Shown: one piece after another, positions 4,827-34,331 of the stretch
Layout: every line of letters begins with the position of its first letter
Position numbering within the stretch: the first letter of the stretch is position 1
Source of the DNA: Vicinamibacteria bacterium
Lineage (GTDB): Bacteria; Acidobacteriota; Vicinamibacteria; Marinacidobacterales; Marinacidobacteraceae
Assembly (NCBI GenBank): GCA_965232015.1
Contig: OZ246946.1
Coordinates: 3,302,612-3,366,611, forward strand
Direction of reading: 5' to 3'
DNA length: 64,000 bases
The notes under the pieces: model-generated
The model's input: the letters and a program-made list of their open reading frames with translations, nothing else
Databases searched by the model: none
Told to the model about the DNA's origin: nothing
Made by a program: the position numbers and the translations under genes

Positions 4827-4890
4827 GCCGTCCTCGCCACTGGCGTCGCCTGAGAGCGCATCAAGCGTCGCCCGCCCGCCGCGCCCTGCG

Positions 4891-6868: not shown

Positions 6869-8029
6869 TTATCGCGGCACGTAATCTCCGGCCCACAGGC
6901 GGCGGGCGAACTCGGTCGCGGGCAGGATTTCGATCCCGTCGTCCGTCCTGAGCAGCCGCGATTCGAGGCAGACCACCAGGCGCCGATCCACTTCGGGATG
7001 GTCCCGCACCAGGGAGCGCAGGCCCTTCAGGTGGCGCGGCCGGATCGCCTTCGCGGACTTCGCCTCGATCGCGATGCGCATGTCGCCGACGATGAAGTCC
7101 ACTTCGGCGCCTCCGGCCAGCCGCCAGTACGACAACCGCTCCGCCGAGCCGGAATAGTCCAGCCATGCGACGAGCTCGTGGTGCACCCAGTTCTCGAACG
7201 CCTTGCCGAAGAGGTCCGACCCGGGCTGGAGCGGGCCACGGAGAGCGAGGCGGTTCACCACCCCCACGTCGCCGAAATAGAACCTGGGCGTTCGGACGGT
7301 TCGCCGTTTGGGCCGCTTCCTCCACGCCGGAAGCCAGCGGCCGAGGAGTGTGTCCACGAGCACGGCGTACCAGGCGCGCGCCGGCTGCCGGCTCACGCCG
7401 CAATCGCTCGCGACCCGCTGGAACCGCACCATTTCGGTATCGCAGATGGCCGCCGCTTCGAGGAAATGCGAGAAGGCCGCGAGGTTGCGGGCGGCGCCCT
7501 CGGCGGCGATCTCCTCTCGCAGGTAGTCCCCCACGTAGGCATCGAGCAGCTTCTTCGGCGTCGGATCGCGGTGGACTGCCGGCAGATAGCCCAGGTCCAG
7601 CACCCGGCCGAGATCGAAGTCCTCCCCGAACTCCGCGGACACGAGCCCGTGGAGCTGGTACCGGATCGCCCTCCCGCCCAGCAGGGTCGCGGCGCCGCGC
7701 CGGACTTTCCGCGCGCTGGAGGCGCAGAGGGCGAAGCGGAGGCCGAGGTTCTCGATCATCCAGTGGACCTCGTGGAGGAGATCCGGCACCCGCAGCACCT
7801 CGTCCACGACCACGAAACCCGGCGCATCCGGCCCGGCGGCCCGCAGCTCCTGCCGGAGCGCCTCTGGGCGGCGGGCGTAGCGGCGGAACTCGTCGGCGCG
7901 CAGCAGATCCACGAACCTCGCCTCCGGGTACCGCAAGCGGAGGTGCGTGCTCTTCCCCACCTGCCGGGGGCCCCACAGGAAGAAGCTCGCGCTCCCGGCC
8001 TCGGGAAGTTCGAGCCTGCGAGTGTACAT
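6869..8029 (-). CDS. AAA+ ATPase, DUF4143 family (COG1373)
   Basis: 386 aa. Walker [10 protein letters not shown], Walker B FVVVDEV, and the DUF4143-like C-terminus (AEVDFIV). Confidence 0.8.
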
Positions 8030-17400: not shown

Positions 17401-17676
17401 CTCGCGATCGAGGGACGCCTGTTCGACACCGGTCTCACCGGCGCTCGCGAGGACGCGTTCCGCGCCCCCATCCGCCTGTTCGGACGGCTCGGAGCCCTCG
17501 CCAACGATGCGGGCCGGGATGGCGCCGACTTCGCCCCCACCGATCAGCAGCGGGAGGTCCGAGCGGTGCTGACCGGGCGGTTCGAAGAGGCGAGGGCGGC
17601 CTACCGGGATCTGGTCGGGACGCAGTTGCCCGCCCTCTGGCGCGCCATCGGGGAGGCGCGCGCCGGAGAGCGGTAG
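14470..17676 (+). CDS. Secreted BNR/Asp-box repeat (sortilin/Vps10-like) beta-propeller protein
   Basis: 1068 aa with a signal peptide. Repeated S-x-D-x-G-x-T-W motifs (SDDAGVTW, TDDGGANW, SNDGGDTW, SDDSGNSW, TTDGGETW, LDDGASWF). Confidence 0.8.
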   Translation: MRVRFRLLLAAAGLILLAATAAAQPLDPAHLGGLRWRTIGPDGNRISAAAGVWGDPDILFFGAASGGLWRSDDAGVTWAPVFDEHDAASISALAVSPSHPDQVWAGTGETFIIRPALAMGNGIYRSLDGGRSFHHRGLEATGRIARILVDPRDPDRVYACALGHSYGPQPERGVYRTDDGGANWSLVLHVDEHTGCSDLALDLDHPNRLLAGMWQLRIATHGLRSGGPGSGVYRSNDGGDTWERLSGPVSADGPNAGRGLPGGEGHPVGKVAVGIAPSDPDRWYALVEDESPGFYRSDDSGNSWRLTLTHHDLAERAPYYVRFAVDATDADRIYFASVLFGTSVDGGLSLHETSYRAGGDNHDVWVDPWLPGRILVGHDGGGSISMNRGASWRRVVPPIAQMYHVTVDDRIPYRVYGNRQDGYSYRGPSRTASGGIPIGRWQGVGGCESGWATPEPEDDNIVWSGCYDGGLEVYDDRTGHVRDVRVWPEAAYGWAPADVKVRWHWNFPMVLSRHEPGTTWVGSQFVHRSRNRGQSWEAISPDLTTNDKARQQDSGGITVDNLYTFDGAVLFALAESPLAPGQLWAGSVDGRLHVTTDGGETWLDRSDQVPGLDEEAWIKSIAPSAHDTGTAYLAVSWHQSGDFRPHIYRTRDLGESWERISAGIPESPFSFVHVVREDPKRAGVLFAGTDNQVWGSLDDGASWFSLRRNMPPAPIYDLVIQERFDDLVVATYGRGFWILDGIGPLRDLAASGSGPFRVFPSPTAWRFLPRQTIKTEPGSLSTGQNPPYGAAISWWTDADASGPARITITNSEDEVIRTLRAPAATGLSRTHWDLRRDGPARATLRTRPPDRDWVEMGEDGSRSIRTWDLDIFPGYRGALVPPGTYTARVEIGDRAAETPIVVEADPSSAATPADAAEKYAFLRAIHAQLDELADMVDELEFARRELAAFEEYVGERHAGDERFTAVLESAAEVAGTALAIEGRLFDTGLTGAREDAFRAPIRLFGRLGALANDAGRDGADFAPTDQQREVRAVLTGRFEEARAAYRDLVGTQLPALWRAIGEARAGER

Positions 17677-17687
17677 GAGCGATCCCG

Positions 17688-19409
17688 ATGGGCGCGGAGT
17701 TCCGGCGCTTCGGCCTGGGGAACCTCCTCGCCCTCGGCCTGCTCGCCGGATGGACCTTCGTCGTGGCCGCCTACGGTCCCGATCCCGGATTCCCGGGACG
17801 GGCGCTCGGAGAGCTCGCGGCCGGACTCGGTCGGACCGCGCTGTGGTTCGTTCCGGTGGGGGTTCTCGTCCCGCTGGCGCTGCCGCGCATGCGGGGGCTG
17901 TTCTCCACCCTCTTCGTGATCCTGATTCCTTCGGTGGTCCTGGCCGCCGCGATCACGGTGCTCGCCGTGGCCGCCCCCGATGAAGCGCCGTGGGCCCTCT
18001 TCGAATCGTTCCAGCTTCCCCCAGTGCTCGACCTCCTCGCTCCGGCGGCGGGCGCCTTCGCCGGAGTCCTCCTCGGGACCGTCCTGGCCCGGGGGTTCGG
18101 AGCCGCGCTGTTGCTGATCCCGGCGCTTCTCGGGATCGGCGCGGTTCTGCTCGCGATCGTCGCCGTCGCGCTGCTCGTCCTCACCGACCGGGTCGCGGCC
18201 GTGGAGCCGGTGGGAGTTCCCGCGCCGACCGCGGCGGACTACCACGCCGCCTTCTCCACCGACCCGGGAGGACGCGCGGGGGAGTCGCGGCTCGCGCTGT
18301 CGCCCGATGCGTTCGCGTCCGCCCTGCGGCTCGCGGTGGCGGCCGGCGGTCTGGCGCCCGGGACGCGGATCGCTTTCGCCGCCGAGGGGGACGAGCTCCG
18401 CGGCGGTTTTTCGCTCCCGTGGACGATTCCCTGGGTCGGGGAGCGGTTCGTCAACGTGGGCGCGGTCGCCCGACCCTCGTTCGAGGACGGGGCGTTCCGC
18501 GCCCGGGTGCGGTCGTTCTCGATTGGCGACCTGACGATCCCGCCGGGGATGGTGCGGCCCGCCTCCCGGATCGTGTCACGCTGGCTGCGGCAGGGGTCGC
18601 CGCTCGCCCCGGTGCTCGACGAGATGCAGCGGGCGGGAGCGGAGCTGGCGGTCGAGGAGTCGGCGCTCGTGGTGCGACGGCCCGCCTCCGCAACGCCGAG
18701 CGGCCCGGTGGGGGACTATGTCGCCCGCCTGGAGCGGGACGCTGGCCGGATTCGCGCCCGCCCGGACCGGTTGGTGGGCGCGCTCGAGACCGTGTTCGGG
18801 CTCGCCGCCGAGCGTTCGGTGAGCGTCGCCGCGATCCCGCACAATCGGGCGGCGATCCTCGCGCTCGGGGGCGCGGCGGGCCACCCGGCGCTGCTGTCCC
18901 TCGCCGGGTTCCCCGAGGCGGCGGGCGCCGCGCGCGGCCTGTCCGAACGGATGGGGCTCACTCTGGGGGGCCGCCGGGACTGGGCGCGGCACTTCCTGCT
19001 CAGCGCCGGACTGAGCCAGATCGGCCCCGACGGCCTGTCCGAACGCGCCGGACTGATCAAGGAGCGACTCGACGCCGCGAGCGGCGGCACCGGCTTCTCG
19101 TTCGCCGATCTCCTCATGGACGCGGCCGGGCGTCGCTTCGCCGCCGCCGCGACCGCGACCGAGCCCTCCGCGAGGGGAATCCAGGCCGCCGTTCTCGCCG
19201 GCGTCGTGGAGGACGACCTCGCACCCGGCAATACCGGCCTGCCGGAAGGTCTGTCGTCCGAGAGGCTGGAGGCGGAACTCGGCGGGTTCGACGGCGAGGC
19301 GTTCCTCGCGCTCGAAGCCGAGATCACCGGACGGCTCGATGCGCTCCCGCTCTACCGCGCCACGCCGAGCCGGGACGCCGTCCCGCCGCCCACTCTCGAG
19401 GACGGCTGA
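17688..19409 (+). CDS. Hypothetical membrane protein
   Basis: 573 aa. It starts 12 nt after the previous gene and has several N-terminal hydrophobic helices with GC3-rich codon usage. There is no recognisable domain. Competing antisense ORFs were judged spurious. Confidence 0.5.
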   Translation: MGAEFRRFGLGNLLALGLLAGWTFVVAAYGPDPGFPGRALGELAAGLGRTALWFVPVGVLVPLALPRMRGLFSTLFVILIPSVVLAAAITVLAVAAPDEAPWALFESFQLPPVLDLLAPAAGAFAGVLLGTVLARGFGAALLLIPALLGIGAVLLAIVAVALLVLTDRVAAVEPVGVPAPTAADYHAAFSTDPGGRAGESRLALSPDAFASALRLAVAAGGLAPGTRIAFAAEGDELRGGFSLPWTIPWVGERFVNVGAVARPSFEDGAFRARVRSFSIGDLTIPPGMVRPASRIVSRWLRQGSPLAPVLDEMQRAGAELAVEESALVVRRPASATPSGPVGDYVARLERDAGRIRARPDRLVGALETVFGLAAERSVSVAAIPHNRAAILALGGAAGHPALLSLAGFPEAAGAARGLSERMGLTLGGRRDWARHFLLSAGLSQIGPDGLSERAGLIKERLDAASGGTGFSFADLLMDAAGRRFAAAATATEPSARGIQAAVLAGVVEDDLAPGNTGLPEGLSSERLEAELGGFDGEAFLALEAEITGRLDALPLYRATPSRDAVPPPTLEDG

Positions 19410-19506
19410 GCGGGCCGCGCCGTTCGGCGCCCCCGGGAGGCATACTTCGGCTCGCTGGGCGCGCCCGCTCCGAGCTGGCGATGCCGGAGTGCGCCAGGGA
19501 GGGATC

Positions 19507-21933
19507 ATGCCGAACCTAAGCGGACGACCGAGAACTCCGGATCCCGGGTCCGGACGACATGGCCCGGAACACCTCGTCCGCGGCCTCGTCGCGCTGGGGG
19601 CAGCGGTCGTGCTGGCGGGATCGGCCTGCACCGCGCGTTCGGGGGCCACGAGTCCCACGCCTCGAGCCACCCCGCCGACCCCGGCTCCGACGCCCCCGCC
19701 CGAGCCCGAGCCGCCTCCGCCGCCGCGGGAGGTCGAGCCGCCTCCCGCCGATGTCTGCATCCCGACCCGCGACGGGTCCTGCCTGCCCGGTCCGGAGTTC
19801 CACGCGCAGGCCGAGGCGCTCGCCACCGACCACCTCGCCGACCCCGCCTTCGGCGCCCAGTGGGGACTCGAGTCCATCAACGCCCACCGCGCCTACGCGC
19901 ACGTGGATCTCCTCGAGGGCGAGGGCGTCGCCCCGGGTGAAGGCGTCACGCTCGGCTTCATTGACACCGGGATCGATCACGACCACCCGTCACTGGCCGG
20001 CAAGTGGATCCACGAGGTGCTCCTCCCCGGAGCGGAGGACGAGACCGGAGAGGACTACTCGCACGGCACGATGGTGGCCGGCGTCGCGGCCGGCGTCCCG
20101 ACGGGCAACAGCGGCTTCTCGCACGGGGTCGCGTGGGGCGCCGACATCGCCATGTGGGCCATCCCGCTCGGCTCGGGCGACGGGATCTACGACCCGCTTC
20201 CGGTGGACATCCTGGGCCTTGTGGACGGAGAGGACGCGGACCAGTTCCAGGCCGTCTTCGACTGGCGTGACGGAGAGCGGCGAGTGGACATCCTGAATCT
20301 CAGCTTCGGCTACCAGGGCATCATCGAGACCTACTCGGAGGAGGATCTCCGCACCTACTACTCGCAGACGCTCGAAGTGCTCGCCCAGGAGGGCGTCGCC
20401 GACCCGGTGCTCCTCGTCTGGGCGGCAGGCAACTCGAACGGCGACCGGTGCGGCTTCGGCACCGAGGGCTGCGAGGACGGGCGCTTCCAGGCGACTTCGG
20501 TGAGCCTCCTGCCCGGGCTCATGACCCGCATCGAGGAACTCCAGCCCCACTCGGTCGCGGTCGTCGCGCTCGGTCCGGATGGGGGCGCGATCGCCGAGTT
20601 CTCGAACCGCTGCGGCGTCGCCGCAGCGTTCTGCATCGCCGCGCCCGGTGAAGAGATCCGGGTCGCCTACTTCGGTCCAGACGAAGAGGATGTCGTCGTG
20701 AGGGGCGCCGTGGACGCCAACGGCACCTCGTTCGCCGCCCCGATGGTGAGCGGCGGGCTCGCGGTGATGAAGCAACTCTTCCGCGACCAGCTCTCGAATG
20801 TCGAGCTGCTGGACCGGCTGTTCCGAACCGCCGACGACACCGGCATCTACGCCGACCGCGAGATCTACGGCCGCGGCCGGATGGACCTCGGCGCCGCCAC
20901 CTCGCCGGTCGGTGTTCTCGACGTTCCCATCGGCGCGCACGGCGCCATGGTTGCGGCCTCGCTCGACTCCACGCAGCTCCGCATGGGGTCGGCGTTCGGT
21001 TCCGGGATCGGGGAGGCGCTCGCCGGGCGCGAGCTCATGGCGCTCGACGACTTCGGTGCCCCGTTCTGGTACAGCCTCGGGAGCTTCGCGGTCTCCACCG
21101 ATGGTCCCTCGCTCGCCCGGCGGCTCCGCACCTTCCTCCGGCCATCGCCGGGCGAAGACGGCGCGGGCGGTTGGACGCTCGCTTCGGCGACCGGTTCCTC
21201 CCGCATCGAGGGCGCGGCGCGGGGCCCCGGGTTCGGAGGCGCGACCGGCCACCTGTCGCTCGCCGAAGGAGCGCTCCTGCTCCCGGCCGGTTCCGGGGAC
21301 GGCTTCACCGCCGCCGCGTTCACCACCGGGCTCTCGCGTCCACAGCATCCGGCCGCCGGCGGGTCGCTGCGTTGGGCGCCGGGACGTCTCCCGGTAGGGC
21401 TCAGCGCCGGATGGATCCGGGAGCCGGAATCGCTCCTCGGCAGCGTCGGCCAGGGCGCCTTCGGGCAGCTCGCGGCCAGCACCGCATTCGGCGGGCTCGA
21501 CGGCGGCGTGACGGTCGGCCGCTGGAGCCTCGGCGCCCGGGGCGAGGTCGGCGTCGTGCGGCCGGAGGCGTGGGGCGGCGTCCTCCAGGACCTGTCGCTC
21601 CTCACGACCAGCACCTTCGAGCTCCACGCCGATGCGGCGTTCGGGGACGGCGGCGGCCTTCGTTTCTCGCTGTCGCAGCCGCTCCGGGTGGACCGGGGGC
21701 GGGCGTCGCTCCTCGTGCCGTCCGAGCGAACCCGTGACGGGGCGATCCGGCATCAGGCGATTGCGGCCGATCTCGCGCCGAACGGCCGCCAGCTCGACGC
21801 GGCGGCGGCCTGGCGCCGCCCGCTGGGGCTCGGCGAACTGCGGATCGGGGCGGTCTGGACCCGCTGGCCCGGGCATCAGGACCTGCCGGGCCACGGCCTG
21901 ACCCTCCTCTCCGGGTGGCGCTGGACGTTCTGA
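19507..21933 (+). CDS. S8 subtilase lipoprotein with Pro/Thr-rich linker and C-terminal autotransporter-like beta-domain
   Basis: Lipobox (VVLAGSAC). S8 motifs are present: Asp (GFIDTGIDHDHP), His (SHGTMVAG) and Ser (GTSFAAPMVSG). The C-terminus ends ...LLSGWRWTF. The start is chosen at MPNLSG; the ORF extends upstream to 19339. Confidence 0.75.
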   Translation: MPNLSGRPRTPDPGSGRHGPEHLVRGLVALGAAVVLAGSACTARSGATSPTPRATPPTPAPTPPPEPEPPPPPREVEPPPADVCIPTRDGSCLPGPEFHAQAEALATDHLADPAFGAQWGLESINAHRAYAHVDLLEGEGVAPGEGVTLGFIDTGIDHDHPSLAGKWIHEVLLPGAEDETGEDYSHGTMVAGVAAGVPTGNSGFSHGVAWGADIAMWAIPLGSGDGIYDPLPVDILGLVDGEDADQFQAVFDWRDGERRVDILNLSFGYQGIIETYSEEDLRTYYSQTLEVLAQEGVADPVLLVWAAGNSNGDRCGFGTEGCEDGRFQATSVSLLPGLMTRIEELQPHSVAVVALGPDGGAIAEFSNRCGVAAAFCIAAPGEEIRVAYFGPDEEDVVVRGAVDANGTSFAAPMVSGGLAVMKQLFRDQLSNVELLDRLFRTADDTGIYADREIYGRGRMDLGAATSPVGVLDVPIGAHGAMVAASLDSTQLRMGSAFGSGIGEALAGRELMALDDFGAPFWYSLGSFAVSTDGPSLARRLRTFLRPSPGEDGAGGWTLASATGSSRIEGAARGPGFGGATGHLSLAEGALLLPAGSGDGFTAAAFTTGLSRPQHPAAGGSLRWAPGRLPVGLSAGWIREPESLLGSVGQGAFGQLAASTAFGGLDGGVTVGRWSLGARGEVGVVRPEAWGGVLQDLSLLTTSTFELHADAAFGDGGGLRFSLSQPLRVDRGRASLLVPSERTRDGAIRHQAIAADLAPNGRQLDAAAAWRRPLGLGELRIGAVWTRWPGHQDLPGHGLTLLSGWRWTF

Positions 21934-23246
21934 CCCGCGCGGCGCGCGAGGATTCCGGCGTGCGCGCCGCCGCCTCCCGGGCAGGGTCTCGTTCGCTGCG
22001 CGTTCCGGCGTGGCGGATCGCGGCCCTGATCGTCGGCGGGATCGCCGTCGGCCCGACGGTCGAGCCCGCCGCCGCCACCGACCGCGCCGCTGAACTCGCC
22101 GAAGCGGAAGGGGTCGGAGCGCAGTGGCTGTTCGACTACGACTACGACCGTGCCGCCGCGCACTACGCCGGGGTCCGTGACGCCTATCCGAACCACCCGA
22201 CCGGCCCGTACCACCTCGCGACCGTTCTCTGGACCCGAGTCGCCCAGCGCGGCAACGGGATGCGGGGCTCCAGTCTCCGCAACGACCGCTACTTCTCGCA
22301 GACCCAGCGCGCCGACGCCACCCGCGAGGAAGGGGAAGCCTTCGCGGCGCACATCGCCGAGGCCTACCGCCGGGCCGATCGCATGCTCGCGACGCATCCG
22401 GAGGATCCGGAGGGGCTCTACTACCGGGGCGCGGCCGAGGCGCTCGAGTCGGGCTGGGCCATCGTGGTGGATCGGGCCTGGTTCCGCGCCGCCCGCACCA
22501 TCCGCCGTGCGACCGGGAGGCTTCGCCAGATCCAGCAGATCGCCCCGGAACTTCGCGACGCGTGGGCCGTCCCCGGCGCCTACGAGTACGGCATCGCCAC
22601 GCTGCCGCGTCCGCTCCGGATGCTCGCCTTCCTCTTCGGCGCCCGCGGGAACCGGGAGCGGGGACTCGAGGGGGTCCGGATCACCGCGGAAGAGGGTCGC
22701 CGGGCGAAGTGGGGGGCGCTGTGGACGTGGGCGCTCCTGATGCAGCGCGAGGGACGGGAGACGGAGGCGCTCGATGCAGTGCGCCGGCTCCGGCGCCAGT
22801 TCCCGCGGAACCCGGACTTCGCGCTCGAGGAGATCGGCGTACTGACGGCTCTCGACGAAACCGTGGAGGCGGAGCGGCAGGCCGACGCCTTCCTCGAGCG
22901 GCGCGACGCCGGCTTCGGGAACTACCACCTCGCCGCGTCGGGCCTGATCGAGCTGCGGCTCGGAGAGATCCTGCTGTTCGAGGAGCGCTGGGACGAGGCC
23001 GTCGCCGCGCTCAGCAGCGGCCTGGCGGCGGGGCCGGACGAGGTGACCGAGGCCACGCTCCTCTTCCGCCGCGGGAACGCCAGGGACGGCGCAGGACGGC
23101 GGGGGCAGGCCGCCACCGACTATTCGCGGGTCATGCGCTCCGGCGCCGACCCCCTCCTCGCCGAGTGGGCCGAGCAGCTCCGGCGCGACCCGTGGCCGGA
23201 GGGAGCGCCCGCCGGCTCCCGTCCCGAACCTCGCCACCGCGAGTAG
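21915..23246 (+). CDS. Hypothetical TPR-like repeat protein
   Basis: 443 aa, helical repeat-like sequence with an N-terminal hydrophobic segment. It overlaps the preceding gene by 19 nt. Confidence 0.45.
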   Translation: MALDVLTRAAREDSGVRAAASRAGSRSLRVPAWRIAALIVGGIAVGPTVEPAAATDRAAELAEAEGVGAQWLFDYDYDRAAAHYAGVRDAYPNHPTGPYHLATVLWTRVAQRGNGMRGSSLRNDRYFSQTQRADATREEGEAFAAHIAEAYRRADRMLATHPEDPEGLYYRGAAEALESGWAIVVDRAWFRAARTIRRATGRLRQIQQIAPELRDAWAVPGAYEYGIATLPRPLRMLAFLFGARGNRERGLEGVRITAEEGRRAKWGALWTWALLMQREGRETEALDAVRRLRRQFPRNPDFALEEIGVLTALDETVEAERQADAFLERRDAGFGNYHLAASGLIELRLGEILLFEERWDEAVAALSSGLAAGPDEVTEATLLFRRGNARDGAGRRGQAATDYSRVMRSGADPLLAEWAEQLRRDPWPEGAPAGSRPEPRHRE

Positions 23247-23740
23247 TGGCTACTCGACGTTAGTTCTCGTACCGTCGCCACGCCACGAGCGCCACATCCA
23301 CCGCGCCGCCTGAGCTGCTCGAGCGGAGTTCGGGCGGCTCAGGCACGGCGCGCATGAAGTGGACGCAGCGCTTCTGTTTGTGACTCATGGGAGGAGCTCT
23401 ACGAGAGGGACGACCAGGACGCAGGATCATCAACTTCTTGAGCGCGTACTCCCACGGGCGTGGCACACCTGATCCGGAGCGTGATATCACTGGTCTCCTG
23501 GAGGCGCCGGCGGTGATGAAAGACCTGCTTGACCTTGATCAAGTCGGAAGATCCAAATCACTATGCGAGGATGGCGGATGCGGTAGGCGAGAAACATGAG
23601 TGAGTGTCGGCGGGGCGAACCCTCCTGCCTGGAGTGTGGAACCGACGGGACGGCTGGGGAGGCTGTGGCGTTGTGGCGAGAGGAGGGGGCGGCAGCAGCG
23701 GAGGCGTGGGCCCTTGATCGTTGATGGCCTCGCGGGGAGC

Positions 23741-25110
23741 TCAGCGTGGGAGGGAGGCGAGGATGGCGGGGAGCCGCTCCACCAGGTAAAGCGGCAGCGA
23801 GAGGAGCCGGTAGCTGACTTCCGAGCGGCGGCCGTTTTCGCGCACGACGGTCCCGACCTCCTGGACCGAGGGCGGCGCCGCGTCGAACCGGACCGCGACC
23901 GGCGCTCTCTTCCGAGCCATGAACTGGTGGAGCGACTTCAGGCTGCCGCTCGCTCCGGCCTTGACTTCCACCGGAACGATGCGTCCGCCGAGAGCCACCA
24001 CGAAGTCCACTTCGGCGTTCGCCGAGCGCCGCTCGCGGAGCCAGTAGGTCAGCTCCCGATTCGCCGCGCCGGCAAGGAGCTCCTGCAGGTGCTGCCCGAT
24101 GAACTGCTCGGCCATCGCGCCCTCGTTGACCAGCCGGATCGAATCGAGCGCCCCGATGGACCTCCAGTCGAGGCCGCAGACCGCGTTCATCAACCCCACA
24201 TCGAGGAACAGGAGCTTGTACACCTTCGCGTCGGCCTCGGCCTGGAGCGGCAGCCCGCCACAGGCGCTGTGGGTGACTCGCAGCAGCACTCGCGCCAGGC
24301 ACAGCCGCGCGATGTCTTCCCGGATCGTCGCCGCCCGCACATCGCGAGCGAAGTGCACGTACTTGACTTTCCTGCCGGTGTAGCGGGCGGCGAGATTGAA
24401 GACCTGGACGATCCGCGCGAGGCTGCGCGAGCCGACGTAGCGCGGGAGGTCCTCCCGATAGGTTTCGATGATGGAGTGATGGACCTCGCTGGCCTCCCGC
24501 AGCCGACCCGACCTCGCGAAGGCCGCCACCGCTTCGGGCATGCCGCCGATGAACAGGTAGGTGCGAAGCCGTTCGAGGAGGCGGTTGTGGAGCGCCGGAT
24601 CCAGTCCGCGACCGATCTCGAACGTGGAGATCAGCTCGGCCAGCCGCTCTTCGCCGGCGCCCCGCAGGAACTCGGTGAAGGTCATGGGTCCCATATGGAG
24701 ATACGCCACCCGGCCCACGGGCATCCCCAGCCGATGCTCGGCGAGGGCGAAGTCCAGCAGGGAGCCTGCCGCCAGCACGGGGAGATCGCCGCGGTCTTCC
24801 CGCAGATAGCGGAGGGCTGGCAGGGCCTCCGGCACCGCCTGGATCTCGTCGAGGAACAGAAGCGAGCGCCGGCCGATCGGCCGGACGCCGGGCAAGGCTT
24901 CAAGGGTCCGGAGGAGGTGGGCTGGATCGTTCCGGGCGAAGGCGGGGCCGAGGTCGGGGTGCCGTTCGAGGTTGATCTCCGTCAGGGGCCGTTCCCACCG
25001 CTCGGCGAAGAGCCGCACCAGCGTGGACTTCCCGACCTGCCGGGCGCCTCTCAGGATGAGGGGCTTCCGGTCGGGGCGGTCCAGCCACGACCGAAGGGGG
25101 GTGAAGTGAC
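23741..25110 (-). CDS. AAA+ ATPase, DUF4143 family (COG1373), third paralog
   Basis: Walker A GARQVGKSTLV, Walker B LLFLDEIQ, and a DUF4143-like C-terminus (AEVDFVV). The start is proposed at TTG 25110 (..LFRRHFTPL..). The ORF extends to 25645 through low-complexity Arg/Pro sequence. Confidence 0.7.
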
Positions 25111-25255
25111 GACGGAACAATGAGACCTCTGGAGGGTGTCGCGGGGAGGCGTGGCGCCTGGTGTTCGGAACACACCTCTGTTTCAGCGACGAGTATGATA
25201 AAACAGAGATCTGTTTCGCCACTTCATCCGACGCGCCCGACTCTGTTGGCTGCAC

Positions 25256-25285
25256 ATGGAGCGTCCGACTCCGCCGGTTCTCCCG
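25256..25285 (+). promoter_or_regulatory. Second copy of the 30-nt motif GGAGCG(T)CCGACTCCGCCGGTTCTCCCGGT, ~150 nt upstream of mbfA
   Basis: It matches 28 of 30 positions of the motif at 329-358. It lies in the divergent intergenic region between the AAA gene (-) and mbfA (+). Confidence 0.35.
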
Positions 25286-25437
25286 GTAGGGGCCCGGCAC
25301 GGGTCGTCCCCTGCCGGCGCTGGGGCGCGATTCGTCGCGACCTTCCCGGGAGAAGGGTCGAGAGCTGCGCTCTGGGCGAGAGCGCTCCATGAAAGGGTGC
25401 CGGCATCTGGCTGCGTGCGGCACAATCCTCATGCCCC

Positions 25438-26538
25438 ATGACGAAGCGTGCGACCTCCCTGCGCGAGAGCTGGGAGAGCGAGGTGCAGGCGGCCTGGCTC
25501 TACCGCGTCCTCGCCGGAATCGAGTCCGGTGCGAACCGGAAGCTGTTCGAGGCGCTCGCCGAGGATGCCCTGGAACAGGGTCAGGCGTGGGTGCGCGAGA
25601 TCGAGAAGGCGGGCGACGCCGCTCCGGGCCCTTATCGCGCGACATTCCGGGTGCGGCTGGTGGGGTTCCTCCTGCGGCGCTTCGGGCCCCGATCGCTCCT
25701 CCCCGCCCTCGCTGCGCTCAAGGTCCGCGGCCTCTCCATCTACCGCTCCGGGCCGTCGAGCCTCGATGTCCTGAGCGAGCCGGAGGCGGGAACGGACGCG
25801 GAGCCGAAGGATCGTCACCTCCTCGACGAGGAGCGGCGTCACTTCTACGCTCGCGGCACCGTCGCCCTCCACGCCGCCGTTTTCGGCGTGAACGACGGCC
25901 TCGTGTCGAACACCGCGCTCGTCCTCGCCGTCGGGGGACTCGGCGGCGACCCGCGGACAGCGCTCCTGGTGGGCGGCGCCGGGATGCTCGCCGGAGCAGT
26001 CTCGATGGGCGCCGGCGAGTACCTGGGAACGCGGTCCCGGATCGAGCTCTTCGAACGGCAGATCGCGCTCGAGGAGGAAGAGCTGCGGCTCTATCCGGAA
26101 GAAGAGGCCGAGGAGCTGGCGCTCATCTTCGAGGCTCGCGGCCTGCCCCCGGACCAGGCGAACGAGCTGGGTCATCGCCTCATCGGCAATCCGGCGCGGG
26201 CGCTCGACGTGCTCTCCCGCGAGGAACTCGGCCTGAACCCCGACGACCTCGGCTCCCCGTGGACATCCGGCGCGGCGTCGTTCCTCAGCTTCGGAGCCGG
26301 GTCCGCGATCCCGCTCCTGCCGCTGCTCCTGCTGTCCGCTGGTCCCGTCTTTCTCGGCGCCGCGCTGGTCTCGGCGGGGGCGCTGTTCGCCGCCGGCGCC
26401 GCGACCAGCCTGTTCACCGGGAGGAAGGCGTGGAAGAGCGGTCTGCGGCTGGCGGCGGTCGGCGCCGCGCTGGGAGCGGGCCTGTTCGTGATCGCGCGGC
26501 TGGTCTCGTCCGCGGTCGCGCCCGGCGGATGGTCCTGA
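25438..26538 (+). CDS. mbfA: Membrane-bound ferritin-like/VIT1-CCC1 family iron (Fe/Mn) transporter (MbfA-like)
   Basis: 366 aa. N-terminal ferritin/rubrerythrin-like helices (EVQAAWLYRVLAG...). C-terminal VIT1 domain (HAAVFGVNDGLVSNTALVLAV...AGEYLG). Confidence 0.75.
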   Translation: MTKRATSLRESWESEVQAAWLYRVLAGIESGANRKLFEALAEDALEQGQAWVREIEKAGDAAPGPYRATFRVRLVGFLLRRFGPRSLLPALAALKVRGLSIYRSGPSSLDVLSEPEAGTDAEPKDRHLLDEERRHFYARGTVALHAAVFGVNDGLVSNTALVLAVGGLGGDPRTALLVGGAGMLAGAVSMGAGEYLGTRSRIELFERQIALEEEELRLYPEEEAEELALIFEARGLPPDQANELGHRLIGNPARALDVLSREELGLNPDDLGSPWTSGAASFLSFGAGSAIPLLPLLLLSAGPVFLGAALVSAGALFAAGAATSLFTGRKAWKSGLRLAAVGAALGAGLFVIARLVSSAVAPGGWS

Positions 26539-26546
26539 GTGGGGCG

Positions 26547-27395
26547 ATGACCAGGGCCGGCCTCGCCGCGGCTCTGCTCCTCGTGATGGGCGGGGCGGGC
26601 TGCGGCGACGGGGCGCAGCCGACCGCTCCGGTGACGCCGCCGGTTCCCCCGCCGTCACCCGTCGTGGATCTCCCGGCCGATCCGGAGGTCCTGTTTCTCG
26701 TCATCGACATGGGCGGCGGCTTCGTGCCCATCGGGTATTCGCTCGGCCTGCCCCCGCTGTTCGCCCTGTCGGTCGCCGGCGAGCTCTGGTCCCGCGCTCC
26801 GGCGCCGGAGATCTATCCGGGCCCGCTGGTTCCCGGCATCGTGCACTCCCGGGTGGATCCGGCAGGCGTCCAGACGGTTCTCCGGCTCATCGCCGAGCTC
26901 GGACTTCCCGATGTGGCGGTGGACGATCTGGAGATGATCCGCCAGCCCGAGGACGGCCCCATCCTCGCCGACGCTCCCGGGGTCGAGGTCCGGTTCACCA
27001 GCCCCGATGGCCCCCACCGCCTGTTCATCGAGGCGTTCGGTTCGTCGTATCACCGCGACCCTCGCGTGGATCTGGTCCGCGATCTGGTGGAGCGCCTCGG
27101 CGGGACGGCGCAATCCGACGGCGACCGGTGGGGCGGGGAGCGCGTCCAGGTGTGGGCGGGTCCCGATACCGGCCACGACGAGACCGTTCTCAGGCGGGAG
27201 CCGTGGCCGCTGCCCGATCCTCCTCCACCTCCCGAGGAGTACTTCGACTGTCAGGTCTTCGAAGGGGCGATCGCCCGGGAGCTGATGGAGGTGTTCGAGG
27301 CGGCGGACCACGGCGTCCGCTGGGAGTACGAAGGAGAGCTCCACCAGGTGCTCGCGCGGTGGCTCATCCCCGGCGAACCCGGCTGCGAGAGCTGA
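26547..27395 (+). CDS. Hypothetical lipoprotein
   Basis: MTRAGLAAALLLVMGGAGCGDG lipobox, then a Pro-rich linker. The six-frame ORF 25389-27395 spans this gene and the mbfA frame; the upstream part is rejected. Confidence 0.5.
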   Translation: MTRAGLAAALLLVMGGAGCGDGAQPTAPVTPPVPPPSPVVDLPADPEVLFLVIDMGGGFVPIGYSLGLPPLFALSVAGELWSRAPAPEIYPGPLVPGIVHSRVDPAGVQTVLRLIAELGLPDVAVDDLEMIRQPEDGPILADAPGVEVRFTSPDGPHRLFIEAFGSSYHRDPRVDLVRDLVERLGGTAQSDGDRWGGERVQVWAGPDTGHDETVLRREPWPLPDPPPPPEEYFDCQVFEGAIARELMEVFEAADHGVRWEYEGELHQVLARWLIPGEPGCES

Positions 27396-27411: not shown

Positions 27412-27640
27412 ATGAGGATCCGCCTCTCGCGACCGCTGAGGCCGGTCGGGGCTCTCGCGCTCGCCGCCGGGCTCGCGACTCCCGCCGACGCGGCCGAGTT
27501 CGACCCCGACGCCTTCCACCGCTTCGTGGAGCGGGCGGCCTCCGACTGGAACGCGACCGGGCTCGCGGTGGCGGTCATCCAGAACGACGAGCTGCTCTTC
27601 GCCCGGGGATATGGAGTCCTCGAGCGCCGCGTCGAGGAAC
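27412..27640 (+). pseudogene. N-terminal stub of a beta-lactamase-family (serine hydrolase) gene, interrupted by the integrase remnant
   Basis: Signal peptide plus 'GLAVAVIQNDELLFARGYGV', typical of the class C/DD-peptidase-like N-terminus. Homology stops after ~75 codons and the frame continues into integrase-like sequence. Confidence 0.45.
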
Positions 27641-28354
27641 GCGGCCACCTGCCGATGGCTCACACGATCCTCCAGACCTGCGGGCGGGTGCTACGCCACG
27701 CTGTGGCGGCGGGCCGTGCGGAGCGGGACGTTTCGTGGGACCTGCGCGGGGCACTGCCGCCCACCAAGATCAAACACTACGCCGCAATCACCGACCCCAA
27801 GGAGGTCGCCCCGCTGCTCCGGCTTCTGCTACTCGGGAACGCTTCCCGTCCGCTGCGCGCTCCGCCTGTTGCCGCTGCTCTTCGTACGGCCCGGCGAGTT
27901 GCGGAAGGCCGAGTGGGCCGGCACCGATCTGGAGTCGGCCGAGTGGCGCTACACGGTCGGCAAGACCGGTACGCCGCACATCGTTCCGCTGGCGCGTCAG
28001 TCGGTCGGGATTCTGCGCGAGGTTTACACGCTGACCGGGCATCACCGCTTCGTCTTCCCGAACGCGCGCTATCCGAGGCGGGAGCGGTCGATGAGCCCCG
28101 CCACGCTGTTGGGCGCGTTCCGGGCGCTGGACATACCGAGCGACCGGATGTCCCTTCACGGATTCCGCGCCATGGCGCGGACGATTCTGGACGAGGTGCT
28201 GGGCTTCCGGCCCGACTTCATCGAGCACCAATTGGCCCACCGCGTCAGGGATCCGAACTGTCGCGCCTACAACCGGACGAAGTTCCTGCCCGAGCGGCGC
28301 GTGATGATGCAGGCTTGGGCCGACTATCTGGACCGGCTCCGGGCAGGGGAATAG
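27640..28354 (+). pseudogene. Tyrosine recombinase (P4-type phage integrase) 3' fragment with one internal frameshift; N-terminal ~150 aa missing
   Basis: Integrase-like blocks are present: RVLRHAVAAGRAERDVSWDLRGALP...KHYAAITDPKEV (frame 1), then ALRLLPLLFVRPGELRKAEW...HIVPL...HGFRAMARTILDE...IEHQLAH...AYNRTKFLPERRVMMQAWADYLD (frame 2). Confidence 0.7.
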
Positions 28355-28429
28355 GCCTAATCGGCTTGCTGGAATCGGTGGTCGGCATCGCCGGAATGGG
28401 CAGCTGGCCGCTGTTCCCGCTGCCTTGGC

Positions 28430-30055
28430 CTATGCCAGGGTGTCGAAGATGTCGCCTTTCAGCTTTAGGTATTCCGGTGTCTCGGCCGTCACCAGAGGTG
28501 CGAGCACGTCGCGCATGAACGCGTGCTTCGATTCGCCAGCGGGTGACAGCTTCAATTGGGCTTTGGCCGCTTGATGCACCGCCTGGGCCGCGGGTTTTAG
28601 GTCGTCGTCCCCATGCTGGCCGCTAGCACGGGCCACAGCTTCGTCGCGAGACGCTCGAATCGCGTCGAAGTTGTCAGCCTTGCCAAGGCTGGCGCAGAGT
28701 CTTCGAAGAACGCCATCGCACAGTAGCATCGATTCGATGTTCCTGTATGCGGACATGACGCGAACCCCTTGGAAGTGCTTGTCCTCGATCTCCGCTGGCG
28801 TCAGGTCGTCTCGATCCCGAAATCTGACAATCTCTGAGCCGCTGACGATCCGCTCCAGGAAAGGAAGAAGGTCCCCCATGCGCTTCTCGACCTTCGTTGC
28901 TGAGCCGACTGAAACGAAGCGGGTTCGCGGAAACTCCCGTGCGAAGATCCGATTGTAGCAGGACTCATCAAGCGCGGGATCATCGCCTTCTGTGGAGCCC
29001 TCGCAGAGGACGATGCGATCGGGCGCCAGAAGCCCCGCCATGTCATCTAGGGCGACATCATAGTGCCGGGTCCAAAACCGGTGATCCGGATCAGCCGGTT
29101 CGATAATCTGCCGTTGATCGTAGTCCCTCGGTTCGCCGTCGCGATCGAAGCCCATGTCGAGGAAGACGACGTGCTCCGGGTGCGCGGCGCGGATCTCCTG
29201 AGCCGTCCGCACCATTCCGATGGAGTGAGTGGCGAGCCAAAGCTGGGAGTTGTCCGGTACCAGTCGATACATCTCTTTCAAGAGCGCGCCCTGCAGTTTC
29301 GTGCTTAGGTGAGCCTCCGGTTCGTCCACGCAATAGAGAGAATTGCTGAACGCAGCCCTACTTACGACTACATCTAGCAGTAGGTCGAACGCGGCCTTCT
29401 CCCCTGCCGACAGGTTTTCGTAGAGACAGTTGTTCGACATTCCTTTGGTGAAGGTGAACGTACCCTGGCCTTCGACTGCAACGACTGCGTTGAGGTGAAG
29501 GTCGCCGAATACGATCCCCATCGATTTCTGGAGGTCGCCGATCGTTTCCTCCAGTATCTGATCGGTCGTCAACCCAGGCGTCGTTACCTGGCCCAAGAGA
29601 CGCCAGATGATCCGCTGATAGTTGTTTTGTACAGTCTTGTCAGTGTCGATCAGCCGGCGAACCGCGTGCCGGTCGAGGATATCGGGTTGATGTGCGATGG
29701 TCGTTTGTTGGAAGGATGGGTCGTGCCGATAGGCAGAGCGAACATAAAGACTCTTCTTGAGGTCGTCCTGGGAGGTGGGGTTGTCGCCATGGAAATCCAA
29801 GATGACTTCATCGCTCGACGCAGTGGTCCCCGGCGTCCTCGGACGACGGTAGTACCTCTTGAATTCGTCGCTCATACCGTAGAATTGGTCCACCTTTAGC
29901 CGCCGTTGAAATGCATCGAACAGTGAGGACTTACCACAACCGTTCGGTCCCAAGAGAACAACGAGCTTCGCATCGAGAGGAAGATCGCAAATCGTTAGGT
30001 GGACGAAGCGCTTGAAGTACGTGATCTTGGCTGATTTCAATTTCATGGGACTAGT
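28430..30055 (-). CDS. ABC-type ATPase fused to a TOPRIM-like (DUF4435/OLD-family) domain; OLD/PARIS(AriAB)-like candidate defence nuclease
   Basis: Walker A LLGPNGCGKSSL, signature-like LSAGEKAAF, Walker B LYCVDEPEAHL, and H-loop LWLATHS. The C-terminal 'RIVLCEGSTEGDD' and 'FRDRDD' resemble TOPRIM acidic motifs. The start is at ATG 30055 (MKLKSAKITYF). The region is lower in GC than the genome. Confidence 0.65.
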   Translation of the reverse strand, partial: TSPMKLKSAKITYFKRFVHLTICDLPLDAKLVVLLGPNGCGKSSLFDAFQRRLKVDQFYGMSDEFKRYYRRPRTPGTTASSDEVILDFHGDNPTSQDDLKKSLYVRSAYRHDPSFQQTTIAHQPDILDRHAVRRLIDTDKTVQNNYQRIIWRLLGQVTTPGLTTDQILEETIGDLQKSMGIVFGDLHLNAVVAVEGQGTFTFTKGMSNNCLYENLSAGEKAAFDLLLDVVVSRAAFSNSLYCVDEPEAHLSTKLQGALLKEMYRLVPDNSQLWLATHSIGMVRTAQEIRAAHPEHVVFLDMGFDRDGEPRDYDQRQIIEPADPDHRFWTRHYDVALDDMAGLLAPDRIVLCEGSTEGDDPALDESCYNRIFAREFPRTRFVSVGSATKVEKRMGDLLPFLERIVSGSEIVRFRDRDDLTPAEIEDKHFQGVRVMSAYRNIESMLLCDGVLRRLCASLGKADNFDAIRASRDEAVARASGQHGDDDLKPAAQAVHQAAKAQLKLSPAGESKHAFMRDVLAPLVTAETPEYLKLKGDIFDTLA

Positions 30056-30252
30056 CCTTGTGGGCGCGTCGGTTCCGTAGGCGTTGCCGTCGCGAATCGG
30101 TGCAGCACGTCCTCCGCGACCGTCAGCATGCCGCCGGTCCCGCACGCGCCGTCGTAGAGCAGGTAGGTGCGGGCCTCGAGCCGGTCGGCGAAAATCGATA
30201 GCGTGCCGAGGATTCCAAGGCTCAGCGCTCGGTATCTCGACACTCCGGGCAA
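30043..30252 (-). pseudogene. Fragment of an N6-adenine DNA methyltransferase (motif I only)
   Basis: The short ORF contains 'LLYDGACGTGGMLTVA', the SAM-binding motif I (DPACGSGGFL-like) of HsdM/N6-MTases. There is no further MTase sequence, and it abuts the ATPase start. Confidence 0.3.
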
Positions 30253-30282
30253 GGTGGAGGCTACGCCAAGTACGGCGGCAGC

Positions 30283-30504
30283 TTAGTCTTCCACTCGCTC
30301 ATCAGGGCGAGCGCGCACCGCACGGATTGGCGATCCTCGAGCGAGATCCCGCTCTCCCGGCGCCAGAGGGCCGCAAAGGAACTCGGCCCACGCGACGGCG
30401 CTGACCAGTACCGGTTCATCCGAATCCGTGGTCTCCATGAGGTGGGACTCCGGTGAGCCCGGTTCCAGCATTCGGATCAGGAAACTGCTGTCCAAGTGAA
30501 TCAC
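30283..30504 (-). pseudogene. vapC: Truncated PIN-domain toxin VapC (first ~73 codons only)
   Basis: MIHLDSSFLIR...VSAVAWAEFLCG carries the first two acidic PIN residues, but the ORF ends after 73 aa, with the distal Asp residues missing. Its ATG overlaps the vapB stop (ATGA). Confidence 0.5.
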
Positions 30505-30788
30505 GAAGGATCGTCCCCCAATCGGGGAAAGGACCCGGATCGGATCTCACCCGCCTCTCGCTCCCACGCCGCGAGATCGACGCCGCGAGACGCCACCGAT
30601 TCCTGAAGTGATCGGAGGGCCCGGCGGCGCGTCTCGGCGCGGGAGGGCACTCGTTCGGAAGCGCCTCGAATCGCCCTCCGAAGCGCTGCGGACTTCGAGA
30701 CGTTCCAGTGACGCGCCAGGTCCTCCAGTCTCCGGGCGGTGTCCGGATCAAGGGAGAGCGTGGCCTTGATGATCGTCATCGTGGCCAT
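30501..30788 (-). CDS. vapB: VapB-type antitoxin (ribbon-helix-helix/CopG-like)
   Basis: 95 aa. 'TIIKATLSLDPDTARRLEDLARHWNVSKSAALRRAIR' is a typical RHH antitoxin N-terminus. It sits upstream of and overlaps vapC. Confidence 0.6.
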   Translation of the reverse strand: MATMTIIKATLSLDPDTARRLEDLARHWNVSKSAALRRAIRGASERVPSRAETRRRALRSLQESVASRGVDLAAWEREAGEIRSGSFPRLGDDPS

Positions 30789-30907
30789 GAGTCGATTGTA
30801 TGGCCATACCGTCTCGCATCCGTCTCGACCGGAATGCCGAGGCTCCCGGTCGGGAGTCCCGTGAGGTGTGCGCCGACCGCCTCTGCCCGCTATGCTTTGC
30901 GCTTGAA

Positions 30908-31681: not shown

Positions 31682-32022
31682 GCGACGGGCCCGGCGCCGC
31701 GGGGTTCCAGCTCGCGATCAGTACCGCTGCAACGCCCGCCGAGGCCGAGCGGATCGCCGCCGCCCTCGTCGAGGAACGCCTCGCCGCCTGCGTGAACATC
31801 GTCCCGGGCGCAACCTCGATCTACCGCTGGGAGGGGAAGATCCATCGCGACCGCGAAGTGCTGCTCCTCCTCAAGACGACCGACGACGCCCTCGATGCGC
31901 TGCGGGAACGGCTTCTGGAACTCCATCCCTACGAAACCCCGGAGTTCCTCGCGTTCCAGGTCGCCTCCGGCGCGCCCGCCTACCTCCGCTGGATCGCCGA
32001 CTCAGTCGACCCTCACGGGTGA
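31678..32022 (+). CDS. cutA: Divalent-cation tolerance protein CutA
   Basis: C-terminal 'AACVNIVPGATSIYRWEGKIHRDREVLLLLKTTDDALDALRERLLELHPYETPEF' is classic CutA1. The TTG start at 31678 overlaps the heme oxygenase stop. Confidence 0.75.
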   Translation: MSDGPGAAGFQLAISTAATPAEAERIAAALVEERLAACVNIVPGATSIYRWEGKIHRDREVLLLLKTTDDALDALRERLLELHPYETPEFLAFQVASGAPAYLRWIADSVDPHG

Positions 32023-32161
32023 CGGCAGGCCCACAGCTTCAGAGTGCAGCCGAGGCTGGTAGGATGTTCCTTAACAGGAGGACTCGCTTCCGTGTTGCTT
32101 CGTTGCCGGGGCAACGACGGACTAGGAAGCGATCGAAATCCTGTCTCAGACCTACAGGAGC

Positions 32162-32989
32162 TTGTCCATAGTGAGTGAAGAACCACGAAAGATGCGTGTG
32201 ATCGCCGTCGACCCTGCACCCGGCAAGACGAGCACCGTGTTCGACGGGAACGAGTTCTGCGAGAAGGAAGCGTCCGCGCTTCGTAAGTTCTTGGACAAGC
32301 CGTGCAACCGAACACACGAGACCCTAGTCTGCTGGGATGCGCCGCTCACCGGTCCGGCGGATCCTTTGTCCGCTGGAGAGATTCCTGGTGACTTCACGCA
32401 GAGACCGATTGAACGGTTCTTCCCAAGGAGACTGGAGACCGCAAGGAGTCCATCGGATTTGAGGCTCGAGACCCCGTCGGGAATTTCGGTGCAGGGTTAC
32501 GCGGGCTGCCAGCACTGGACCATTTCGAGATCTCTCCTCGGTTTGCCAAGGACCGGACGTTTTGACTGTGCCTACAGCGAACTACCATTTCATCTAGTAG
32601 AGGGCGCAGCGTGCCTGAGTGCGGGGCGGCCCTGCGTCGTTGAGATTCATCCGGCTGTGGCAGCGTGGCTGTGGTGTCGATGCGAGAGAGGAGCGGACGC
32701 AGACTGGAGATACAAGGGGAACAAGGGAACCAAGAAAAGCAGGGAAAGAGTTCGCGAAGAAATGTGGTCGATCATCCTCGACAAGACACAGTTTCCGTGG
32801 GAGACGCCGCTGACGCCGAAGAACGACGATCAGTTCGATGCTGCTGTGGGCTACATCTTGGGCAGCCTGTACGCCGATGAGGAGACGAGGGACAAAGTGA
32901 CCCTGCTCGGCAGCCGTGAGACGGGTTCGTTTCTCCTGCCTGTAGTGCGTGGGCTTGAGGAGAAGTGGAACGATTGGATCAAGCCGTGA
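32162..32989 (+). CDS. Hypothetical protein, probable DUF429/COG4923-like RNase H-fold protein (low-GC patch)
   Basis: 275 aa. 'MRVIAVDPAPGKTSTVFDG' resembles the RNase H-like N-terminal strand with Asp. The C-terminus 'DDQFDAAVGYILG' also fits the fold. Local GC is ~55% against ~70% for the genome. It is a distant paralog of 58268-58897. Confidence 0.55.
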   Translation: MSIVSEEPRKMRVIAVDPAPGKTSTVFDGNEFCEKEASALRKFLDKPCNRTHETLVCWDAPLTGPADPLSAGEIPGDFTQRPIERFFPRRLETARSPSDLRLETPSGISVQGYAGCQHWTISRSLLGLPRTGRFDCAYSELPFHLVEGAACLSAGRPCVVEIHPAVAAWLWCRCERGADADWRYKGNKGTKKSRERVREEMWSIILDKTQFPWETPLTPKNDDQFDAAVGYILGSLYADEETRDKVTLLGSRETGSFLLPVVRGLEEKWNDWIKP

Positions 32990-33162
32990 GCGGAGGCTGC
33001 CGTTGGGGACCGCCCGGCAGTCGGTCCCGGCCGCAGTGCCGGTCTGGAGACCGGCGCTCCATACGGCGCCCGTGCCGTCGTTGACGGGGAGTCGGCACGG
33101 TCGGTAGCGTTCGCGCTACGTGCGGAGCCGCCGAGGTCCGCACTCCAGGGGGAGTTCATCCG

Positions 33163-34215: not shown

Positions 34216-34331
34216 GCGTCGAACGCACCGCGCGGCCGGCCGGCCCACTCGCCGGGCGGCGGGGGACCGCTGTCACCGGTCGCGGATATCATGTTTCGTT
34301 CGCCTGCGTGCGTCCGAGGAGGTCGTGCTCG

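Follow-up and report, generated by a model that had tools for sequence, protein, structure and literature searches.

In a 64-kb stretch of contig OZ246946.1 from a Vicinamibacteria bacterium (hereafter the window, numbered from its first base), a 2.7-kb mosaic of foreign DNA lies between the remains of two resident genes, one for a β-lactamase-family serine hydrolase and one for the toxin VapC. The mosaic most probably (we put it at about 0.8) displaced 1.6 kb of native sequence through recombination that was illegitimate and not site-specific. It brings together a piece of a P4-type integrase gene, a low-GC (guanine-plus-cytosine) cassette encoding an ATPase related to phage-defence proteins, and a scrap of a methyltransferase gene (Table 1). 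The locus is an ordinary decayed insertion, a scar of horizontal gene transfer. An initial annotation of the same DNA had taken positions 27412–30800 for one decayed island, with the toxin–antitoxin pair as part of its cargo; each of the sequence features it named was confirmed at or close to the position given, several of them to within a few bases, with homology scores well above chance.

Table 1. Features of the insert and of the resident genes at its borders (window coordinates)
Feature	Position	Strand	Description
Hydrolase stub (β-lactamase-family serine hydrolase)	27412–27625	+	Start codon, signal peptide, codons 1–71
Foreign DNA	27626–30338		2713 bp; bounded by loss and return of homology to L001
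P4-type tyrosine integrase remnant	27626–28354	+	Residues 153–396 of the 413-aa integrase P0121; joined in frame to the hydrolase stub
Spacer	28355–28398		44 bp separating the integrase stop from the cassette; nothing similar in the fetched loci
Single-gene cassette	28399–30091	−	1693 bp, 57.8% GC; L002 matches precisely this interval at 94.3% nt identity
Cassette coding sequence	28430–30046	−	538-aa ABC ATPase fused to a DUF4435/TOPRIM-like domain; intact
Type I (HsdM-like) N6-adenine methyltransferase fragment	30091–30189	−	33 codons spanning motif I (YDGACGTGGML)
Foreign stretch	30190–30338		149 bp; holds the last 18 codons and stop (30283–30285) of the vapC′ frame
vapC′	30339–30504	−	Native, first 55 of 122 codons; N-terminal half of the PIN domain; open reading frame as read, 30283–30504
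vapB	30501–30788	−	Native; 95-aa ribbon–helix–helix (RHH) antitoxin, full length; PF01402, E = 1.4e-5

Ancestral locus and boundaries of the insert

A syntenic relative was sought by scanning one genome per species with the lipoprotein encoded just upstream of the hydrolase stub (26547–27395), and one was found (L001), a metagenome-assembled genome (MAG) labelled Acidobacteria bacterium; a second candidate, L019, is 100% identical to L001 and counts as the same genome. The window and L001 are collinear for over 10 kb to either side of the insert, with 78–90% nucleotide identity. The gene order in L001 is lipoprotein, full-length hydrolase, full-length vapC, vapB, heme oxygenase, CutA, and proline racemase, in which the hydrolase (520 aa; PF00144 Beta-lactamase, 204 bits, plus DUF3471) converges on vapC (122 aa, PIN domain) and vapB (94 aa) across a 57-bp spacer. 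Homology between the two genomes ends at 27625/27626, picks up again at 30338/30339, and is unbroken from 30339 across vapB into heme oxygenase and CutA. The native DNA replaced amounts to 1609 bp, comprising hydrolase codons 72–520, the 57-bp spacer, and vapC codons 56–122. Since L001 has both genes intact between the same neighbours, the hydrolase stub, vapC codons 1–55, and vapB are best read as native chromosome and not as island cargo; the polarity of the change follows clearly, as the genes truncated in the window are full-length family members in L001. Comparison with a relative lacking the insert, a check suggested in the initial annotation, thus gave both the boundaries and the ancestral gene order. 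The missing halves (hydrolase 3′, vapC 3′, and integrase 5′) were not found elsewhere in the 64-kb window by tblastn. Neither were intermediate states found in public data: a first metagenome scan with the lipoprotein gave nothing, and a second, with a two-sequence alignment, returned only relatives of 25–37% identity without synteny.

At the left junction (27625|27626), the aligned homology to L001 stops at ...CTCGAGC, where the native and integrase sources have only 'GC' (2 nt) in common, which points to illegitimate recombination. Both junctions sit within genes, on the native and the foreign side alike, so that neither can be an attachment (att) site, and because all breakpoints fall within genes, the joins stem from illegitimate recombination or from deletions and not from the action of the integrase. 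No tRNA or tmRNA gene was found in the whole window, no Rfam match in 27.0–33.5 kb, and no direct repeats bracketing 27626–30338.

The insert itself is a mosaic, put together from at least three pieces with no relation to each other, namely the integrase remnant, the low-GC cassette, and the HsdM scrap; no fewer than four breakpoints lie within it or at its ends. In composition, the integrase piece (68.6% GC) differs from the cassette, and the two therefore have different histories. The overall GC content of the window is ~69%. It drops to 55–60% over 28.5–30.2 kb, between native flanks of 68.5–72%, and is ~65–66% across vapBC, in agreement with the lower GC that had been noticed over 28.4–30.5 kb. 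Homology to L007, a locus carrying the integrase gene, ends at 28350 and homology to L002, a locus carrying a second copy of the cassette, begins at 28399, and the 149-bp foreign stretch at the right has no homology to L001 or to any other fetched locus.

Truncated genes at the two ends

The hydrolase stub has 78.7% nucleotide identity to L001 up to 27625 and stops before the S-x-x-K motif (STTK in the L001 ortholog), and the full ~330-aa PF00144 domain is not kept. Pfam gave no Beta-lactamase match on the 80-aa stub by itself, the identity of which rests on the L001 ortholog. By way of that ortholog, we could uphold the earlier observation that a β-lactamase-like N terminus runs directly into P4-type integrase sequence, moving the junction from ~27640 to the position given above.

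From exactly 27626 onward, blastn aligned the window to the gene of the integrase P0121 (in L007, L008, and L009) with 88.4% nucleotide identity over 27626–28350, and the proteins are 86–87% identical from residue 153 onward by BLASTP. P0121 is an Arm-DNA-bind_3/Phage_int_M/Phage_integrase protein whose gene adjoins MobC and relaxase genes; library matches of the remnant are PF22022 (Phage_int_M), PF00589 (Phage_integrase), and NCBIfam PRK09692. As had been described, with about 150 missing codons and a frameshift near 27830, the gene is not intact: the first 152 codons are absent, and with them the whole Arm-DNA-binding domain and one half of the central one, and the loss of 5 nt at 27829 throws the codons that follow out of frame (LLRLLDGYSG in P0121 versus CTG-C-TAC in the window), leaving the catalytic domain, with the motifs HGFRAMARTILDE, IEHQLAH, and AYNRTKF, in the +1 frame. 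The chimera of hydrolase stub and integrase (27412–28518) is accordingly a pseudogene, with a non-functional integrase. At its 3′ end (28351–28354, compared with L007 11188–11242), the remnant diverges from its closest relative, the P0121 gene, 4 bp before the stop codon. P0121 runs 17 codons further, and the 3′ end of the remnant may be another breakpoint.

The methyltransferase scrap, which ends exactly at the 5′ edge of the cassette, is ~70% identical to residues 32–64 of type I M subunits and plasmid class I S-adenosylmethionine (SAM)-dependent DNA methyltransferases (tblastn, E = 4e-9), and matches positions 206–233 of the 661-position PADLOC MTase_I profile (E = 4.9e-6). Only the codons around motif I are left, and the full N6_Mtase domain with motif IV (NPPF) is not kept. 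The fragment had been recognized before, at a length of 35 codons instead of 33.

At the right junction, the vapC′ open reading frame has 73 codons, the length at which the toxin had been thought to be truncated. The truncation is real, and the VapC part is shorter: the final 18 codons are read-through into foreign DNA, and only the first 55 are VapC. Residues 1–55 of L001 VapC match the window at 74.5% (tblastn, E = 8.6e-25), and the PIN match of vapC′, over the first 50 residues of the frame, covers profile positions 3–48 of 120 with 17.1 bits (cut-off 23.6 bits), as compared with 45 bits on PF01850 for the full-length, 122-aa relatives. The antitoxin gene, reported earlier as intact, is indeed full length at 95 aa in comparison with its relatives; VapB homologs (90–94 aa) invariably come with a gene for a PIN-domain toxin, the partners of distant homologs being a 122-aa PIN protein (L017/L018) and a 341-aa PIN–DUF4268 fusion (L015/L016). 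With VapC reduced to 55 of 122 codons, VapB is therefore an orphan antitoxin; vapC′ is a pseudogene, and vapB has no functional cognate toxin. Because vapBC is intact at the same place in L001, the toxin was cut as collateral damage at the right junction and not by selective decay of cargo.

The genes for VapB, VapC′, the methyltransferase scrap, and the ATPase all lie on the minus strand, with the ATPase gene 237 bp downstream of vapB–vapC′. As they share a strand and no terminator-like site was detected, the ATPase gene may be transcribed from the vapB promoter. The promoter and terminator scans were empty, which is uninformative at 70% GC; with no such site callable in DNA of this composition, co-transcription with vapB is purely inferred.

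Origin of the locus

Replacement of native chromosome by a foreign mosaic could have come about in two ways. In a single step, a linear foreign fragment that was already mosaic in the donor would have been inserted in exchange for the 1.6 kb, each end being sealed through microhomology or end-joining. The mere 2-nt identity at the left junction, the position of both foreign ends in the middle of genes, the small size of the insert, and the unameliorated GC content of the cassette all favour such an event; the separate histories told by the different GC of integrase piece and cassette do not, and the present data do not separate it from a course in several steps. We consider one-step replacement plausible, at somewhat less than even odds.

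In the stepwise course, a larger integrase-bearing island (integrase, type I restriction–modification genes, and embedded genes) would have entered the 57-bp spacer, separate deletions would then have taken each end together with the adjacent native parts, and internal deletions would have left the mosaic of truncated integrase gene, cassette, and truncated hsdM. The integrase remnant faces outward at the left edge, as in islands with the integrase first, and the number of breakpoints is in line with this course; moreover, defence islands with the same ATPase also hold integrases and insertion sequence (IS) elements, and the surrounding 23–34 kb are rich in insertions and deletions relative to L001. 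To be set against these points, no tRNA or att remnant is present, two independent deletions are needed, each across an island–chromosome border, and public data yielded no intermediate state. This course, too, is a serious possibility that falls short of being probable.

That the whole of 27412–30800 is one decayed island inserted in the hydrolase gene, with vapBC as cargo and the other hydrolase half marking the far boundary, is very improbable, even though vapBC and defence genes often travel on islands, the pieces are contiguous, and GC is slightly low across vapBC. L001, without an island, has an intact vapC–vapB pair convergent with an intact hydrolase; its homology to the window is already continuous from 30339, and the hydrolase 3′ half, which lies within the replaced 1609 bp, is not in the window. 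What stands of the proposed integrated element is decayed foreign DNA with a dead integrase and an intact ATPase gene, as a mosaic of unrelated pieces that spans 27626–30338 and not as one element; the pair described as its remnant, with the toxin inactivated, is native. Chimeric joins by a metagenome assembler are scarcely credible as the source of the junctions, since, for all that the related sequences come from MAGs and the left junction has short microhomology, both flanks are syntenic with a single L001 contig without change of order or orientation, a chimeric join would not be expected to lead back to its starting locus after 2.7 kb, and four distinct joins would be required.

One circumstance weighs against replacement of native chromosome as reconstructed here, namely that L001 is the only independent syntenic relative, so that polarity rests on L001 and on the truncation of otherwise full-length families. 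The locus leaves current concepts unchanged, and it provides a base-resolved example of a defence gene entering a chromosome outside site-specific integration, by which a resident toxin was killed and its antitoxin orphaned. It also illustrates how a reading as an island with decayed cargo, made from the sequence of one genome, placed resident genes in a mobile element, and how one syntenic genome fixed the boundaries to the base.

The cassette gene and its relatives

The cassette gene is the only complete, motif-intact foreign gene in the insert. Its coding sequence starts at the ATG at 30046 (MKLKSAKITYF), while the mechanically called open reading frame begins at a GTG at 30145. The ATPase is recognized by PF13304 (AAA_21, 51.5 bits) and PF13175 (AAA_15, 49.2 bits), both over the cut-off, and has the Walker A motif GPNGCGKSS, the signature LSAGEKAAFDLLLD, the Walker B motif DEPEAHL, and ATHS; the C-terminal domain is marked by IVLCEGS, FRDRDD, and RNIESMLL. 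In an alignment of 36 sequences, all invariant columns are kept by the window copy, and the ratio of nonsynonymous to synonymous substitution rates (dN/dS) between the window gene and the L002 copy is 0.33.

The family is large and highly conserved, with at least 3487 homologs at E ≤ 1e-5 (8000 candidates scored). The best 120 of these have 447–569 aa, mostly ~535 aa, and are 64–93% identical to the window protein; the few named sources among the 120 listed are Chloroflexota, Verrucomicrobiota, Acidobacteriota, and Gammaproteobacteria MAGs. Should the family prove to act in phage defence, the PARIS/OLD theme would reach into environmental phyla. In phage records, no homolog of the ATPase was found, and only one plasmid has a homolog (Zymomonas pZMOB01, 42% identity).

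The flanks of the L002 copy are unrelated to the window and encode a DarT–Macro pair (DarTG), a Metallophos/AAA_23 pair, and a UvrD/OLD-like (Gabija-type) pair. Copies of the cassette gene at ~82% identity lie amid IS elements, integrases, and toxin–antitoxin genes, or on a Zymomonas plasmid, and have no constant partner gene. Adjacency to hsdM was considered as a typical arrangement for the ATPase and was not seen in seven contexts. In three metagenome contigs (L004–L006), IS elements and two integrase genes accompany a homolog of the ATPase with 80% identity in an island. There (6891–7091 and ~17674–20103), the island lies between 66-aa and 752-aa products that both match DUF2339, and looks like another case of the ATPase gene in DNA that broke a resident gene.

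Neighbouring region

The 23–34-kb stretch differs between the window and L001 by many insertions and deletions and holds several defence-type genes. At 32013–33160, the window has a second, independent low-GC (60.6%) insertion, where L001 has 33 bp between CutA and proline racemase; the open reading frame within it (32162–32989, + strand, 275 aa) has a sub-threshold match to DUF429 (21 versus the 23-bit cut-off) and no PADLOC match. The DUF429 gene near the L002 copy of the ATPase (93% identical) was compared with this insertion, and no relation was found. On the other side of the locus, an AAA_14 plus DUF4143 ATPase gene (23741–25645, − strand; PADLOC candidate family PDC-S01, E = 4e-144) is intact in the window; its L001 ortholog (4392–5192) is a pseudogene, in which 818 bp are gone internally (window 23978–24795). 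The ~515 bp at 23225–23739 are present only in the window, without counterpart in L001, and ~500 bp at L001 11833–12335 (window 34218–34271) only in L001.

Comparison with known systems

Among integrases, the remnant is of the P4 type (Arm-DNA-bind_3/DUF4102) found in integrative mobilizable elements, as its likeness to P0121 indicates, and differs from these in the absence of residues 1–152, in the 5-nt deletion, and in having no att site or tRNA. The toxin–antitoxin genes resemble chromosomal VapBC systems in that the gene for the RHH protein VapB overlaps that for the PIN protein VapC by 4 bp, the orthologous pair being intact in L001 (94 and 122 aa), and differ from them in the loss of more than half of VapC, of which 55 of the 122 codons are kept.

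PARIS is activated by phage anti-restriction proteins (Ocr-like) and acts by tRNA cleavage, with AriA as the ABC ATPase and AriB as a DUF4435 TOPRIM nuclease. The 538-aa protein of the cassette is PARIS-like, of the fused AriA–AriB type, as judged from profile matches and residue conservation. Its top PADLOC model is AriAB (fused PARIS; E = 7.8e-18), with 62 bits against a 694-position profile and a match that extends to residue 455. The ATPase part of the ATPase–TOPRIM (DUF4435-like) fusion proposed initially is thus secure, with the start now placed at the ATG given above; the DUF4435 part was reached through relatives. P0365, a homolog of the C-terminal domain (E = 1.9e-23), reaches 31.2 bits on DUF4435 (gathering cut-off, 27) over the aligned region, and 12 of 31 sampled distant relatives match Pfam DUF4435, so that the assignment, being transitive, is a tentative one. 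An exhaustive phmmer search with the C-terminal domain gave 451 cluster representatives, mostly of the fused architecture and some stand-alone; fused and split forms thus both occur in the family, as has been reported of PARIS. Stand-alone C-terminal-domain proteins of 240–320 aa include P0260, P0317, P0345, and P0365.

The catalytic acidic residues of AriB are Glu26, Asp30, Asp88, Glu90, and Glu122 (PMC11464382), and fused AriA–AriB forms are documented (PMC9122126; PMC11464382). In the window protein, Glu349, Asp411, Asp413, and Glu438 are invariant among the 36 aligned sequences, and the equivalent of Asp30 is not conserved. The spacing of Glu349–Asp411–Asp413 (62 and 64) is that of Glu26–Asp88–Glu90 in AriB, and Glu438 is 89 residues from Glu349, as compared with 96 for Glu122 from Glu26. 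An AlphaFold model of the full-length protein (predicted local distance difference test score (pLDDT), 78) gave the retron Eco8 OLD effector (E = 1.8e-10), PtuA, and GajA as the top Foldseek matches, with low TM-scores (0.24–0.27) driven by the ATPase head, and the isolated C-terminal domain was modelled with a pLDDT of 83 and an alternation of strands and helices.

Several results speak against the assignment to PARIS. The window ATPase has no direct Pfam match to DUF4435 (PF14491); the model of the isolated C-terminal domain had no significant match in the PDB by Foldseek (GajA, E = 0.27; no AriB chain); and PDB searches by sequence, with the single protein and with two family profiles, reached the ATPase head only and not AriB.

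By analogy with PARIS, the protein would act as a single-polypeptide abortive-infection sensor and effector, in which the ATPase moiety would hold back the TOPRIM nuclease as long as no phage trigger is sensed, and the nuclease, once freed, would cut host nucleic acid; the target of PARIS in E. coli is tRNA-Lys. A bolder view, which we regard as unlikely, is that the ATPase–DUF4435 proteins form a single-gene clade related to but distinct from PARIS, perhaps with its own trigger and target, which would spread as a bare ~1.7-kb gene without dedicated recombination machinery and which has here perhaps undergone an operon fusion behind the orphan vapB, so that an antitoxin would control a defence effector.

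With the OLD family (class 1 OLD/P2 Old, the retron Eco8 effector, and Gabija GajA), the window protein shares the architecture of an ABC ATPase followed by a C-terminal TOPRIM-like domain. It differs in having no match to PF20469 (OLD-like_TOPRIM) at E up to 10, in its DUF4435-type C-terminal motifs (CEG...RDRD...RNIE), and in having no GajB or retron reverse transcriptase/msd partner; on the NCBIfam model of the retron Eco8 effector it scores 17.5 bits against a cut-off of 250. AbiL (AbiLi ATPase plus AbiLii DUF4435) and Septu PtuA have related ATPase heads (PADLOC AbiLi, 1e-9; PtuA, 7e-10), and split two-gene versions of the window protein's own family exist too, but the window protein is fused, has no HNH partner (PtuB), and scores on these models below AriAB. 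Its likeness to PARIS lies in the succession of an ABC ATPase (AAA_15/AAA_21) and a putative DUF4435-type domain in one polypeptide, in the AriB-like acidic residues, and in being encoded by a lone gene found in defence and mobile settings; it differs from PARIS in the weak profile match, in the lack of a direct DUF4435 match and of a significant PDB match to AriB, and in belonging to a distinct, tightly conserved clade.

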